Origin: a virus
Taxonomy: Duplodnaviria; Caudoviricetes
Length of the DNA stretch: 25,047 nucleotides
Virus record (IMG/VR): IMGVR_UViG_3300031519_000203
Location: 1-25,047 of that record
Direction: 5' to 3' (one strand)
A model generated the notes under the pieces. The model saw only the letters and a program-made list of their open reading frames with translations, searched no databases and had not been told where the DNA came from. Shown piece after piece: positions 9,663 to 25,047 of the stretch (its first letter is position 1; each line of letters begins with the position of its first letter). A program made the translations under genes and the position numbers.

Positions 9663-10022
9663 TTAGATTGCAGTTAAACGTAATACTGTATCAGTTGAAT
9701 CGTCTTCAAGTGCCCAAGTATAACGGTTAGCAGCCCAGTCTGTAGCAGTTCTGTTAAAAAGTTTTTTAAGAACTACACGCTCGCCAGCAGTATTAAATGC
9801 TTCTAGTACCATTTGCCCTGCTACAATAGAAGCAGTTGCAACGTTTGCTAGTCTGCAAATAGCAGTAGCATTACCTGCATTATTGGAAACTGTGAATTTA
9901 TTTGTGCCTTTTTGATTTACGATATATGCTTGTTCGTCAACGCCGCCAACATATGCACGTACTGTGATGTTAGTGCCGTCTGCCGGATCACCAAGATATC
10001 TTTTATTTACTGGACGTCCCAT
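9663..10022 (-). CDS. Hypothetical protein downstream of the major capsid gene (119 aa, MGRP... start); possible capsid-associated protein
   Basis: ORF track; strong AAGGAG SD; has its own late promoter. Confidence 0.75.
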   Translation of the reverse strand: MGRPVNKRYLGDPADGTNITVRAYVGGVDEQAYIVNQKGTNKFTVSNNAGNATAICRLANVATASIVAGQMVLEAFNTAGERVVLKKLFNRTATDWAANRYTWALEDDSTDTVLRLTAI

Positions 10023-10109
10023 TTTTTTCTCCTTAATAGTTACGTTCTAGGTAATACGCGGATGGTGCCGCATAAGTCCTCATCTAGAGGTTCGTTCTCT
10101 ATGACAATG
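10023..10109 (-). promoter_or_regulatory. Structured 5' leader (candidate cis-regulatory RNA)
   Basis: Stems TATGCGG/CCGCGTA (10055-10074) and CCTC/GAGG (10078-10090); AGAACG repeated (10043-10048, 10093-10098). Confidence 0.45.
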
Positions 10110-21114: not shown

Positions 21115-21291
21115 ATGGAAAATCAATCTAAAAATATTAAAATGGAAACATTTAGATTAAGTTGGTTTATGAGAGGAGGCATGACGCTAGACGAAGCGTT
21201 TGCACTAGGAGCCGAAGAAAGAGAAATTGTTTCTGAAATAGTTAAAGAAAATTTTGAAACTACAAAGAAAACACAAATGCCGTATTTTTAA
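21115..21291 (+). CDS. gp51: Small gp51-like protein (58 aa) or frameshift extension of the gp26-like protein; missed by the ORF track
   Basis: MENQSKNIKMETFRLSWFMRGGMTLDEAFALGAEEREIVSEIVKENFETTKKTQMPYF; ERE motif and position after gp26; stop overlaps the convergent gene's stop (TTAA). Confidence 0.6.
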   Translation: MENQSKNIKMETFRLSWFMRGGMTLDEAFALGAEEREIVSEIVKENFETTKKTQMPYF

Positions 21292-22808
21292 ACAGCTTTT
21301 GGTTTTACAACCCTAGGCTTTTTAACTGCTGGTGCAGCAACACCACTAAGTTGACTCTTAATTTCAGCAGCAGCACCTGACTTTTTAATTTCAGCAGCAA
21401 GTTTCTTTAAGTCAAATACAGTATTTTCTTTACTTAATGTAACATCACTTTGCACACTAACTGCTTGAATTAAATCTGTATCCATTCCTGCATCTTGAAG
21501 TATTCCGTATATACTTCCAGTATCGATTGGGTTGCCTAAATTACTCCACGCTTGTTGTAATTTTTTAGCAGTAACTTTGTTACCTAATTCATTACCGACA
21601 TCTTTTGTTTTTTGTGCAATTGCTTGTCTTGCTGGTGCTGTTGCTTTTGCAACTTTATCGGCTCCAGTTTTCATTAAGCCTGCTGCTTTGCTTGCAATAT
21701 TGCCAAACGCACTTTCTTTAAGATATTGTTCATAGTCTGCTTCTAGCGATTCTTTTTTATTATTGCTACTAGCTGCCGAACCTTGTACTAGAGCAGTTAT
21801 ACCTGTTTTAGCACCCTCAATCCATTGAAATAAACTATCGTTTTCTCTAGCCACTGCTCCAATGTTTTTTAACATATCTTTATAATCAGTAGATTTAATT
21901 TCTTTAGATAAATTATAAAGTTTTTCAAATGCTTGACTTGCTCTGTCGCCGCCTTGTCCGATTACATCCATTAGGTTATTAATAGTAGCTGCATCGTCAG
22001 GTAACACCTTTATGTTAACGCCGCGAATTTCTCTAGTCCATTCGTAACCAGGAGCACTTAGAGTTTTAGATGCGCCATAATCAACATCAGCAAATCTGCC
22101 TTGGTCGATAACTTCGCCTCGTATGCCAGAAAAGAAGCCGCCTACTTTGTCAGCGGCAAAACCTGCTAGAGCACCAATAGCAGCAGTCTTTGCCGCTTTA
22201 CCAACTGCTGTTGAAAGTTTTTCACCTTGTAATAAATCTTTAGTCGAACGCAACAAGAAACCTGCTGCTGCGCCACCTGCCGGTCCGCCCATTACAGATG
22301 CTACCGCGGTCAAAATACCTACAGCAAGAGTTGCTTTTCCAGGATTTGCTTTGGCCCAATTACTAACTGCTTTAATACCTTGTACTATTTTATTGTCCGG
22401 ATTGTTAGCAGCAATATTTTTTGTTAATTCAGAAAACTTTGCATCCATATTGCTAACAGGACCAGAATCTTGAGCCATACGGCCTAGTTCATTAACTTTG
22501 TCGTTAACTGCCTTTAATACTTTTCCTGGTAATTTAACACCTGCAACTGCTGTATCACCTGCTTTGCCTAATCCTGATCTATTAGCACCACTATCTTTTG
22601 CAACTTGTTCTGCATTTTGAAAAATAGATTGTATTTGCTGTGTTGTTAAATTTTGTTCAAACAATGATTTAACATCTTCAAGCAACGGCCATAATTCTTT
22701 TTCAAATCTACTTAGATAAACTTTTTGTGTTTCAGTAAGGGTTTGATATCCTTCATTTAGAATACGATGAGTTTTATTTTCAAATAGTGTAACTTCGTGT
22801 AAGTTCAT
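21288..22808 (-). CDS. Hypothetical Ala/Gly/Lys-rich protein (506 aa), probable internal head/ejection protein
   Basis: ORF track; start overlaps the upstream stop (ATGA); hydrophobic glycine-zipper segment; LFE/LNE/LTE/LKE putative maturation sites. Confidence 0.7.
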   Translation of the reverse strand: MNLHEVTLFENKTHRILNEGYQTLTETQKVYLSRFEKELWPLLEDVKSLFEQNLTTQQIQSIFQNAEQVAKDSGANRSGLGKAGDTAVAGVKLPGKVLKAVNDKVNELGRMAQDSGPVSNMDAKFSELTKNIAANNPDNKIVQGIKAVSNWAKANPGKATLAVGILTAVASVMGGPAGGAAAGFLLRSTKDLLQGEKLSTAVGKAAKTAAIGALAGFAADKVGGFFSGIRGEVIDQGRFADVDYGASKTLSAPGYEWTREIRGVNIKVLPDDAATINNLMDVIGQGGDRASQAFEKLYNLSKEIKSTDYKDMLKNIGAVARENDSLFQWIEGAKTGITALVQGSAASSNNKKESLEADYEQYLKESAFGNIASKAAGLMKTGADKVAKATAPARQAIAQKTKDVGNELGNKVTAKKLQQAWSNLGNPIDTGSIYGILQDAGMDTDLIQAVSVQSDVTLSKENTVFDLKKLAAEIKKSGAAAEIKSQLSGVAAPAVKKPRVVKPKAV

Positions 22809-23440
22809 AGTAATGCTGCCAATTCTTTTTTCTGTTCAGGACTTAATGCGTCAATTTGTTTTTGCATTGCAGGTTTAACTTTAATTTTAGAACTGTCAAC
22901 TGAACCTGTTTTATCAGCAGCTGGTTTTCCAACAGGACTTGCCGACGGTTTAGCATTTGGATCAAAACTCTGTGCTACTGCTTTTGCAATAATAGTTGCA
23001 ACTTGAGTATCTTTTAAAGGAGCACTAATAGTTTTAAGTGTGTTAGTTGGCAAACCTTGCTTTGCCATAAAGTTTGCTAGTGTTTGTGCATCAACTGAAT
23101 TCTTGTTGATGTTAGCACTGCCAGCAACGCTTAACCAACGACGATAAATTAGGTTAGAACGTTCTTTACGATCTACATCTCCTGCCATACTAGCAGCAGT
23201 ATCTTTAGCACCTAGTTTAGCAGCAGCTTTAGCACCAAACTTTTTTAATCCAGTTCCTAAATCACTAAATGGTGCTTCATCGATTTTGTCAACAGAACTA
23301 ACTTGCGTACTTCCTACTAGTTTATTTCTAGTAGCATTTTTAGTTGTACCAGATGGCAATTTCTTAATAGCATCTTTAGCTTTAAGTTGTCCCTTAGGAC
23401 CTTTGTGCTGTTTTTCTGTGATTACTTGTAATACTCGCAT
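22805..23440 (-). CDS. Hypothetical basic protein (211 aa, MRVLQVITE...), probable internal head protein
   Basis: Start re-assigned to ATG 23440, which has a GGAG SD and ATAAATA at 23464-23470 upstream. Confidence 0.7.
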   Translation of the reverse strand: MRVLQVITEKQHKGPKGQLKAKDAIKKLPSGTTKNATRNKLVGSTQVSSVDKIDEAPFSDLGTGLKKFGAKAAAKLGAKDTAASMAGDVDRKERSNLIYRRWLSVAGSANINKNSVDAQTLANFMAKQGLPTNTLKTISAPLKDTQVATIIAKAVAQSFDPNAKPSASPVGKPAADKTGSVDSSKIKVKPAMQKQIDALSPEQKKELAALL

Positions 23441-23463
23441 TATTAACTCCGATAACTTATATG

Positions 23464-23470
23464 TATTTAT
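23464..23470 (-). promoter_or_regulatory. Late promoter box ATAAATA
   Basis: tatttat on +, 23 nt upstream of ATG 23440. Confidence 0.65.
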
Positions 23471-23479
23471 TATATAGTA

Positions 23480-24011
23480 TGTGTTTCGTTGCACGAAACA
23501 AGTTTTCGCTAACGCTCAAACTACTTACACTTCGTTTTAATTAAATGATTTATATATAAACAAGCAATATTACGAATGTAATATTGTATTAATTTCATGT
23601 AGATCGTTTCAGTCAGACGGAACCTGTTACGGCCCCGTCGTCTAAAAGATAAACTTCATGTGAGTCTTATCCAGCCATAGACATTGGAAGTAGGTGTTTG
23701 TTATACTGCTACACAATGGGCTCTGACCTTTCCCAACCTACGTCGACATCTATTACAGAAACTTGCAAAAAGTGCAAGTATCCTGCATTATACCTCTCGC
23801 TTCGTTCCTGTTGCTAAAGAGTTTTTATGTGTAATGTGCAGTTTTTCGATTGACAGCAATCAATCTATATCAACTAGTGAGCCCAATTTGTTTGGTGGCT
23901 TCCGCACTCTGGTGCGTCAATCAATATGTACGAGTGTCCTTCTCAGGGGACCTTTTTCTCAGCGGTATTTGCAAACTGGCCCGCTAACCTTATGTGCTGT
24001 ATTGACTTGCC
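23480..24011 (-). ncRNA. Candidate large structured ncRNA (unassigned family) directly downstream of the GIY-YIG gene
   Basis: By far the largest gap in a gene-dense window; at least 8 local hairpins, G-U pairs that work only on the minus strand, a GAGA tetraloop and long-range complementary blocks. Confidence 0.55.
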
Positions 24012-24437
24012 TTAGGGATTTTTTTTAAGATGTTCTTTGAGAATGTTTGATCCGCCAACTCTAACATTGATAATACCATTATAGTAATCATCTGTTTCGA
24101 GTACTCTACGTTCAAACTGTTCACGGGCCTCTAAGTAACTTGCTATGCCTCTGCTGGGACAAAAATGTAATATTTCACGTGTGAAATTTTCTGTGCCTAA
24201 CTCTAAAACGTCTGCGTTAAGTCTATCACTGGATCCCCAATAGTCTCTCCAGTCACTTTCTTTAGTGCTACGTCTTTTATTCTTCTTGCCTTTAAGCGGT
24301 GGTTTAGTTACTTTAAACTTTGCTAGTTTCTTGCCTACGTACATCATGCCATTGGATAAATTTGTTATCAAGTATACAAATGCTTCACAACCTTCCGGAA
24401 GTTCGTCTAGTTGTTTACCCTGATAAGTCCAATGCAT
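24012..24437 (-). CDS. GIY-YIG family endonuclease (endonuclease II/Seg-like), 141 aa
   Basis: AFVYLITN...YVGKK, YWGSS, FTREIL, LEAREQ, YYNG motifs. Start re-assigned to MHWTYQG (24437) because the longer ORF overlaps the upstream gene. Confidence 0.8.
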   Translation of the reverse strand: MHWTYQGKQLDELPEGCEAFVYLITNLSNGMMYVGKKLAKFKVTKPPLKGKKNKRRSTKESDWRDYWGSSDRLNADVLELGTENFTREILHFCPSRGIASYLEAREQFERRVLETDDYYNGIINVRVGGSNILKEHLKKNP

Positions 24438-24444
24438 AACATAC

Positions 24445-24660
24445 TTATTTTGCCTTTTGTTTCTCAGCTGCCTTCTTGGCTGCAAACGCTACGTGTATTT
24501 CTTCTTGCCTTAATTTTGCCAATCGCCTAATTTTTCGCAACCAACTACGACTTGCAGCATGTGTACGATAAGACAACCGATCTTCAAACGCCTCGTTTGC
24601 CTTAAAATACTCTAAGTATGCCTTAGTTAATTGATCGTGTATATCATCTTGTATATTCAT
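24445..24660 (-). CDS. Small helical basic protein (71 aa), possibly nucleic-acid binding (Hc1-like pattern)
   Basis: ATG 24660 just after the gp46 stop; AASRSWLRKIRRLAKLRQEEI basic helix. Confidence 0.6.
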   Translation of the reverse strand: MNIQDDIHDQLTKAYLEYFKANEAFEDRLSYRTHAASRSWLRKIRRLAKLRQEEIHVAFAAKKAAEKQKAK

Positions 24661-24670
24661 AATACACTCT

Positions 24671-25047
24671 TTATTCAACTATGTCAATGTCATTTTCGTA
24701 GGAAGTAAATCCATTTTCTTTTACAACACGCATAACATAATTAACTCGTCCTATTAGTTCGTCTTTGTGTGAGATAAGATAAACGTTTTTATCACCTTCA
24801 CGCCCCATTTTCTTAAGAACTCCTAGGGCACTTTCAACGCCGGCTGTGTCCATACCACTGTCGATAAGCTCGTCAATAAACAACAAGTTAATCTTTTGAT
24901 ATAGGCTTTCCCAAACATCGCGGAATGCAAAGCTCATACCTAAGATAAGTCTGTTGCGTTCACCGCGACTCAAGTTATCAAAGTCTAGATCTTGTCCTAG
25001 TTGAGTAATTTCAACATTCAAATCATTCTGGAACACAACTTGATGCG
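24671..25047 (-). CDS. gp46: Recombination endonuclease ATPase subunit gp46 (SbcC/Rad50-like), C-terminal part
   Basis: ABC signature LSRGE, Walker B LFIDE, D-loop SGMD, H-loop ISHK; begins beyond the right edge of the window. Confidence 0.92.
   Translation of the reverse strand, partial: HQVVFQNDLNVEITQLGQDLDFDNLSRGERNRLILGMSFAFRDVWESLYQKINLLFIDELIDSGMDTAGVESALGVLKKMGREGDKNVYLISHKDELIGRVNYVMRVVKENGFTSYENDIDIVE

Follow-up and report, generated by a model that had tools for sequence, protein, structure and literature searches.

The window analysed here is the whole 25,047-base stretch of a virus record that encodes a T4-like major capsid protein, a portal and a baseplate hub. On its minus strand a gp46-like gene, a 71-aa ORF and a GIY-YIG nuclease gene lead, in this order, into a gap of 568 nt (23444-24011), by far the largest between the main ORFs, the next measuring 220 nt. 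A preliminary description of this DNA had remarked on the size of the gap and had proposed that it holds a large, multi-junction RNA of the minus strand belonging to no recognisable family. We find there a conserved element of about 420 nt, followed by an AT-rich flank (Table 1). Judging from its consensus match, the promoter listed in the table is the likely source of a transcript running through the small ORF, the nuclease gene and the element.

Table 1. Positions of the element, its parts and the flanking features in the window
Feature	Position	Strand	Remarks
C-terminal part of gp46/SbcC-like recombination nuclease subunit	24671..25047	-	phrog_77, E 7e-26; conserved upstream landmark
Sigma-70-type promoter	24659..24687	-	11/12 consensus matches; consensus match only
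71-aa ORF	24445..24660	-	No family match; comparable small ORF ahead of the L223 resolvase
141-aa SegE-type GIY-YIG nuclease gene	24012..24437	-	PF19835, E 3e-32; phrog_447, labelled 'NAD synthetase'
Element	23589..24000	-	About 420 nt
5' domain	23848..24000	-	Pseudoknot 24000-23995/23858-23853; variable hairpins inside; exchangeable between classes
5' domain stems	23985-81/23965-61; 23960-58/23934-32; 23926-21/23873-68; 23865-61/23852-48	-	From alignment of relatives
Central domain	23684..23821	-	Invariant GGAACGA loop; variable long hairpin 23754-23787; stems 23741-36/23695-90 and 23735-32/23720-17
3' module, common to all classes	23589..23685	-	Heptamer copy 1, hairpin 23637-31/23624-18, TGAC, heptamer copy 2
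Heptamer copy 1, ACATGAA, after ACTC	23655..23661	-	Proposed guide
Heptamer copy 2, ACATGAA, after ATCT	23594..23600	-	Proposed target site on the opposite DNA strand
85% A+T stretch (window mean 61%)	23534..23593		Candidate unwinding element, from composition
Short-hairpin cluster (23565-23586, 23482-23500)	23480..23586		Relatives' loops cGNAg/cGNNAg, on both strands
Variable downstream ORF, 212 aa	22805..23443	-	No family match; outside the element

The variable ORFs past the element (22805-23443 and 21288-22808, minus strand) match no family and have M-x-(V/L/I)-x-(E/Q)-(V/I)-like starts, common in the downstream genes of relatives; such starts presumably recall the capsid-targeting ends of internal head proteins. 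Elsewhere in the window, an Rfam freshwater-2 RNA (RF02980, 56.2 bits) lies at 10020-10092 on the minus strand, ahead of a 119-aa ORF following the major capsid gene.

Fold and classes of the element

Homology to the nuclease gene yielded at least 80 viral loci, 28 of which show blastn similarity to the gap, and in large T4-like aquatic phages the element is conserved behind the SegE-type GIY-YIG gene. Covariation was assessed on 45 sequences of class A, the class of the window, taken from 76 dereplicated ones; helix 23821-23819/23798-23796, misaligned by MAFFT, was excluded from the count. The remaining 55 pairs in 11 helices, drawn from the window and the same alignment so that the figures lean their way, form in 99.1% of cells and have changes on both sides in 21 cases; none of 500 shuffles reaches this, and slid controls give 29-41%. 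The 5' helices covary strongly, including a pseudoknot that is missing from the stems listed in the preliminary description. The central and 3' helices are mostly invariant and hence less well supported, helices 7 and 10 showing no double change. The minus strand is fixed by wobble pairs, since G-U cells outnumber A-C cells by 227 to 17 in the paired columns (58 pairs, including the helix later dropped). The window sequence alone also folds better than its shuffles, although only modestly (z = -3.0 on the minus strand and -2.5 on the plus strand). We regard it as practically certain that a real structured element is present. This large, multi-junction, pseudoknotted element reads best as a minus-strand RNA, a reading supported by the covariation, by sigma-70-type promoters directly ahead of it in relatives and by the lack of any Rfam match at the site.

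Every stem and motif of the preliminary description is present on the minus strand where it had been placed. The GTAGGT/ACCTAC pairing covaries in relatives; a rival RNAalifold pairing of GTAGGT with heptamer copy 2 was rejected, as it breaks where the ACCTAC pairing covaries. Two partners had been suggested for one 12-mer: GGTCAGA/TCTGACT is kept in 43-45 of 45 sequences with no compensatory change, whereas GAGCCCA/TGGGCTC (23879-23885) is not conserved (25-39 of 45 per pair). The invariant loop of the central domain is able to pair with 23617-23611. The GTCC/GGAC hairpin, described as capped by GAGA, encloses an 8-nt loop in a variable hairpin rather than a plain tetraloop, and the hairpin at 23565-23586, formerly counted as part of the RNA, is assigned here to the downstream cluster of DNA-type hairpins, outside the RNA core. 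Short AGGCA and AGAC-N5-GTC motifs recur in the A/C-rich linkers ahead of the RNA (L021, L024, L028, L029, L058 and L160; first 100 nt past the nuclease stop), and AGGCA is present once at the start of nearly all members, at 24006-24011 in the window.

Database searches returned no Rfam match at the element, either in the window search or in 23300-24200 at E up to 10, and no tRNA or tmRNA in the window. A blastn search of 50,697 phage records gave nothing beyond short chance matches, and no description of the full element was found in the open-access literature.

Landmarks assigned 25 of the 79 loci with a stop codon to class A, 36 to the divergent class B and others, and one to class P; six were too short and 11 were left unassigned, four of which show the module by other tests. 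Another four of the 11, namely L004, L009, L072 and L079, gave no element landmark. Past the nuclease stop, L011, L017, L025, L026, L044, L054 and L068 hold further divergent classes, those of L025, L026 and L068 being not classable; no twin heptamer was found in L011 or L017.

One nuclease locus matched the Rfam model Polynucleobacter-1 (RF01718), a motif that appears in the tabulation of Weinberg 2010 (PMC2864571) as likely cis-regulatory, with 16 representatives. The core pattern of this motif drew 120 loci, many by chance; among the 20 chosen for testing, 14 gave RF01718 matches of 81-121 bits, all except one lying directly behind the same nuclease family (53-57% identity) at the end of the gp46 cluster. 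The match corresponds to the first ~140 nt of elements of ~400 nt, which continue for ~250 nt more and end in a twin-heptamer module. The window shares this module (ACTC and a 7-mer, a hairpin, TGAC, then ATCT and the same 7-mer) as well as the locus, behind a PF19835 gene at the end of a gp46 cluster. A model built from 26 P-class modules only had its top match in the window at 23589-23685, with 25.0 bits and an E of 0.0016 on a rough calibration, the next match scoring 9.3 bits; with E up to 1 it also matched 16 of 37 sources, among them loci of class B, of class A and of the small phages. The RF01718 model itself (threshold 37 bits) gave no match to the window's element in 23300-24200 at E up to 10; it spans 141 positions, all outside the 3' module, and the 5' domain of the window is unmatched. 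Because the P-class module model finds the 3' module of the window at the same kind of locus, RF01718 is a fragment of a larger element, namely the 5' domain of one class, and the window holds a sister class with a different 5' domain. The earlier view of an RNA of no recognisable family holds as far as Rfam matches at the site go, but the 3' module is common to the Polynucleobacter-1-headed elements.

Twin heptamer and downstream flank

The preliminary description had noted that ACATGAA occurs twice, and both copies fall in the 3' module. The same heptamer stands in both copies in 105 of 107 distinct loci, the copies being anchored on invariant structure landmarks and not on their identity. 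One exception is mis-anchored and the other has G/A at the last position, which leaves one true mismatch in 106. The heptamer differs between phages, with 18 variants, and copy identity reaches 77/78 and 19/20 versus 34.6 and 2.8 on shuffling. No complement of the heptamer was found at a constant place in the gene or the RNA, with or without G-U pairs.

Identity between the copies stops sharply at an invariant CTC/TCT difference, with a partial excess at -5 and +9 and, in class P, also at -6 and +10. Flanking mismatches between copy 1 and copy 2 run G/A 61 to 0 at +8 and T/C 21 to 0 at +9, counts that come from related loci and are not phylogenetically independent. Wobble pairing permits this direction only when the partner of copy 1 is the complement of copy 2. 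The bias is lacking at +10 and runs the other way at -6 in class P; such pairing would leave mismatches at -1 and -3, and another possible role for the G at +8 is to close a loop with the C at -3. In the description of bridge RNAs in PMC11208160, same-sense covariation marks bottom-strand pairing and is how the guides were found. Pairing of the RNA with DNA is, on these sequence patterns, the cause towards which we lean for the twin heptamers, strict protein recognition or gene conversion being the alternatives.

Three other explanations of the repeat were rejected. Copy spacing varies continuously between 48 and 68 nt, which rules out helical phasing on double-stranded DNA. Many heptamers lack the GA of a C/D-box or K-turn. 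Repeated genome-wide targets would be expected to show in the large contigs, where the 11-nt copy-2 site has two matches in G002 and three in G001 (two of these being one palindromic site), near chance. In L137 and L181, the GGCT preceding copy 1 and the GACT preceding copy 2 both carry a C-to-G change (columns 424 and 498 of alignment A1), which disrupts the proposed final pair of the pseudoknot; from this paired change, the unit that is repeated may extend beyond the heptamer.

The first 60 nt past copy 2 have a mean of 72% A+T in 120 related loci. Within 150 nt past copy 2, hairpins with cGNAg or cGNNAg loops were found in 102 of these 120 loci (cGNAg, 71 sense and 54 antisense), against 2.0 loci in mononucleotide shuffles. 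The flank of the window itself holds no perfect cGNAg loop; its loops are near-matches, GAAT closed by C-G on the plus strand and GCA closed by T-A on the minus strand. Loops of the cGNAg type are stable in DNA rather than RNA.

Sigma-70-type promoters, recognised by consensus only, stand directly ahead of the element in L001, L002, L011 and L017 (8 of 156 loci match the pattern, four of them here), and consensus matches occur at the same place in L044, L054 and one small phage. Part of the region is present in 14 metatranscriptome runs. Contigs from seven of these and from one run of unrecorded type cover the element; they are unstranded, lack ends and have unrankable depths, and may reflect DNA carry-over. 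One 315-nt contig from an RNA run spans 23604-23918 with two differences. No joint skipping the inter-heptamer sequence was seen among the RNA-run contigs listed. We consider it likely that the element is transcribed into an RNA of roughly 420 nt.

Small phages and the polymerase-fold gene

The two exceptions to the nuclease linkage are small siphovirus-like phages of ~29 kb with a terminase, portal, capsid and tail of their own. In three distinct small phages (L354, L357, L360), the RNA stands shortly upstream of the terminase small subunit, and each of the three has a matching heptamer pair of its own. Promoter and twin heptamers are retained, as are, by eye, the downstream hairpins, with no nuclease nearby. 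No replication family was recognised in 30 ORFs of an RNA-bearing small phage, represented by a 25.6-kb contig of 85% completeness and by two ORFs of a second contig that overlaps it. The small phages also show TATAAATA motifs, which we take to be T4 late promoters, hinting at a helper. We consider these ~29-kb phages (L354-L374; G005, G006, G009-G015) candidate satellites of large T4-like phages.

In five small phages (L366, L371-L374), in which no RNA was detected, the same slot ahead of the terminase holds a gene of 450-520 aa, preceded in four of the five by two or three near-identical repeats of 14-18 nt. The model of the protein (pLDDT 90.5) resembles family-A DNA polymerases in all the matches listed, the best with E 1.6e-6 and a TM of about 0.37, and an alignment shows polymerase-type motifs. 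Pfam and PDB sequence searches gave no match for this protein, and no helicase was recognised beside its gene. Members of the family (L366 10803-12242, L375 5410-6927, L377, L378) have an extra N-terminal domain besides the family-A fold and usually lie behind two to eight direct repeats. Going by the modelled fold, the family is a candidate Rep or primase; family-A-type proteins of this kind figure as predicted or shown primases in PMC2579912, PMC7581432 and PMC10061031.

The jumbo contig L375 has the same landmarks as the element-bearing loci, with a gp46 of 62% identity, a resolvase 32% identical to that of L223 and a baseplate hub of 38%. In its slot, a 16-nt repeat occurs eight times, together with an AT-rich run and a gene whose product is related to the L366 protein. 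No element landmark was detected in L375, using a class-A profile combined with pattern landmarks, a search that failed on L360, and a 3'-module profile that missed even known bearers. The evidence for replacement comes from partial contigs, this jumbo one and the five small ones, and in L375 the element may be located in another part of the genome. Past the polymerase-fold gene, a short palindromic stretch (L375 6980-7030) presumably resembles an IS200/IS605-type end. L359 and L361 have neither RNA nor polymerase gene in the stretch covered; their slot holds other cargo, such as an acetyltransferase, and a 260-aa ORF of L361 has no family and no atlas match.

The origin reading, its alternatives and known systems

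In-place displacement is treated in PMC2579912 as a recognised sign of equal function for replication modules. Because a polymerase-fold gene with a repeat array takes the same slot in relatives, the RNA likely starts genome copying. Furthermore, origin-type features are present, with a promoter pointing into the element and an AT-rich stretch downstream that is predicted to unwind. The context points to a cis-acting replication origin rather than to a free RNA such as ROOL or GOLLD. Taking the structured element as real, we hold its function as an origin to be clearly probable; that it is an RNA-based replication origin, with a loop heptamer likely pairing with its own DNA, is the reading that we favour with some reserve.

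We may hypothesize the following course of events. The host polymerase would transcribe the element early, from the upstream sigma-70 promoter, and the RNA would fold during synthesis. Heptamer 1 and its flanks may then pair with the template strand at heptamer 2, around the invariant CTC/TCT mismatch, forming a persistent R-loop that would hold the duplex open beside the AT-rich stretch. The 3' end of the RNA, left by RNase H or a nuclease, or else a nick, could be extended by the phage polymerase, while helicase and primase would load on the single-stranded hairpins downstream. Small phages would use a captured origin, to be copied by the large helper phage or the host. One point set against the origin reading is that GC skew is uninformative: in two large contigs it tracks gene strand, and the element lies near a local minimum (in the same 5-kb bin in G001, 8-22 kb off in G002) and near no global one. 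The transcript also crosses copy 2 anyway and could form an R-loop with no guide at all, which leaves the need for copy 1 unexplained. At about 225-240 kb in G002, no ATG-started ORF was called over ~10 kb, probably reflecting one very long gene cut by the 20-kb stretches.

A bolder form of the RNA-based origin, which we put forward tentatively and with more doubt than belief, is a self-targeting initiator: a multi-pseudoknot RNA that would replace a Rep or primase, find its own locus by a reprogrammable 7-nt guide and open or nick the DNA, either as a ribozyme or by making a mismatch bubble for any resolvase. Small satellite-like phages would steal it so as to be copied by the large phage.

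All the displacement evidence would fit equally well an origin acting as folded single-stranded DNA, in which transcription does no more than open the duplex so that the displaced strand can fold, after which heptamer 1 pairs again with the template at heptamer 2, or a replication protein binds the two. G-T pairs are possible in DNA, and the sense strand of the core does have cGNAg loops (14 versus 2.3 shuffled). However, the core also has an excess of GNRA loops lacking a C-G closing pair, on the sense strand only (45 versus 5.1 shuffled), and together with the many G-U cells, the several pseudoknots and the dedicated promoter where the element stands apart from the gene, this makes us consider folded DNA unlikely.

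The element could also act in trans, as an RNA scaffold or decoy offering two equivalent loops for protein binding; its heptamers would be alike by protein co-evolution or gene conversion, and in the small phages it would be an accessory gene. Its position behind an early promoter, in a variable slot that can hold other cargo, would suit such a role, as would the possible -3/+8 pair framing both heptamers alike and the metatranscriptome contigs. Yet loose protein binding would allow drift, of which the single true mismatch gives little sign, and both the DNA-type hairpins on two strands and the swap for a polymerase with repeats would be left unexplained. We give this explanation little credence.

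A role for the neighbouring gene deserves separate consideration. The RNA might guide the GIY-YIG nuclease in the manner of TnpB or IscB, heptamer 1 directing a nick at heptamer 2. Of 80 loci with long flanks, six were too short and 74 could be assessed; in 72 of these the gene does lie 156-584 nt ahead of the central motif. It also precedes nearly all Polynucleobacter-1 matches, and Ssn GIY-YIG proteins are described as cutting structured DNA beside their own gene (PMC11893778). This linkage is nevertheless not obligate. In L223 (884-1405), an unrelated Holliday-junction resolvase, phrog_244 (E 2e-20), takes the place of the nuclease, and no GIY-YIG homologue was found on its 89-kb contig. 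Conversely, no phrog_244 was found in four records bearing the GIY-YIG gene, phrog_447 and phrog_244 being mutually exclusive in five records. A whole gene is inserted between nuclease and RNA in L220 and L227, no GIY-YIG gene was found on the RNA-bearing small-phage contigs, and no RNA was found behind nuclease homologues of 89% and 74% identity (L004, Melnitz), Melnitz giving no blastn match to the element. Co-descent is likewise not observed: on a protein tree of weak resolution, the RNA classes and the genes without RNA intermingle, and proteins 94% identical accompany different heptamers. The GIY-YIG gene is thus the usual neighbour of the element, not an obligate partner, and guidance of the nuclease by the RNA is very improbable.

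Since the nuclease is swapped in place with the phrog_244 resolvase and is separable from the RNA, the phrog_447 'NAD synthetase' is likely, by this exchange, a branch or Holliday-junction resolvase. The protein model has a pLDDT of 89.4, and a PDB sequence search with the protein gave no match. Endonuclease VII gave no match in five records, nor in the controls. Reverse transcriptase (PF00078) was found in none of five records, one of them 99% complete, and in 3 of 14 controls, which speaks against a system of the DGR, retron or DRT kind; a host enzyme is possible.

Last, a packaging element (a pac signal or packaging RNA) would account for the position shortly upstream of the terminase small subunit in the small phages, but in large phages the element closes the gp46-resolvase cluster and adjoins baseplate genes, sigma-70-type promoters drive it, and its replacement is a polymerase rather than a packaging gene, so that we judge this highly improbable.

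What is new here is the Polynucleobacter-1 link, the twin-heptamer counts, the resolvase swap and the swap for a polymerase with a repeat array. If the reading as an RNA-based origin is true, an orphan Rfam motif from 2010 would gain a function and turn out to be one piece of a much larger phage element. This element is abundant, the central 17-mer of just one class occurring in about 820 stored stretches. An RNA with a guide-like heptamer would trade places with a primase-polymerase and its repeat array. The findings also suggest that the widespread phrog_447 family consists of junction resolvases, and they draw attention to the family of 29-kb phages as possible parasites of large ones.

Several known systems bear comparison with the element. 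ROOL, GOLLD, HEARO, RNase P, tmRNA and group I/II introns are likewise large, ornate RNAs in phage or mobile DNA; none matched at gathering score in the window, nor at E up to 10 around the element. The ColE1 RNA II preprimer is a long RNA whose fold is thought to control its hybrid with its own template, followed by single-strand initiation hairpins. It belongs to a plasmid rather than a phage, shows no sequence or Rfam match to the element and, to our knowledge, has no twin heptamer; no antisense regulator was seen here.

The IS110 bridge RNA (PMC11208160) is alike in that part of the RNA covaries with a DNA site of which it is a same-sense copy. In contrast with its left and right guides for both strands, the element has one same-sense 7-nt segment, occupies a fixed locus rather than forming a mobile element, and has flanking genes that are not recombinases. 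Ssn nucleases with their SRM hairpins (PMC11893778) offer a small stand-alone GIY-YIG gene beside a structured nucleic acid, but they are ~94 aa long, belong to cd10448 and accompany many hairpin repeats of ~28-37 nt, whereas we find 141 aa, PF19835 and one separable element of 420 nt. The replacement protein, for its part, resembles the TV-Pol and A-family primase-polymerases of PMC2579912 in its family-A fold, its lack of proofreading domains and its size of 450-520 aa.

A further parallel is offered by T4 itself. In the account given in PMC3016281, oriF and oriG combine a promoter with an unwinding element and are primed by R-loops, oriE has iterons, R-loop formation is independent of specific sequence, and the rules governing R-loops at origins count among the open questions. 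The element is alike in its T4-like phage background, in the succession of promoter and candidate unwinding element, in RNA as the likely primer and in having iteron origins as the alternative type. Unlike oriF and oriG, it has a conserved 420-nt fold, pseudoknots and a covarying twin heptamer and, if our reading is true, would represent a sequence- and structure-specific version of the RNA-primed T4-type origin.
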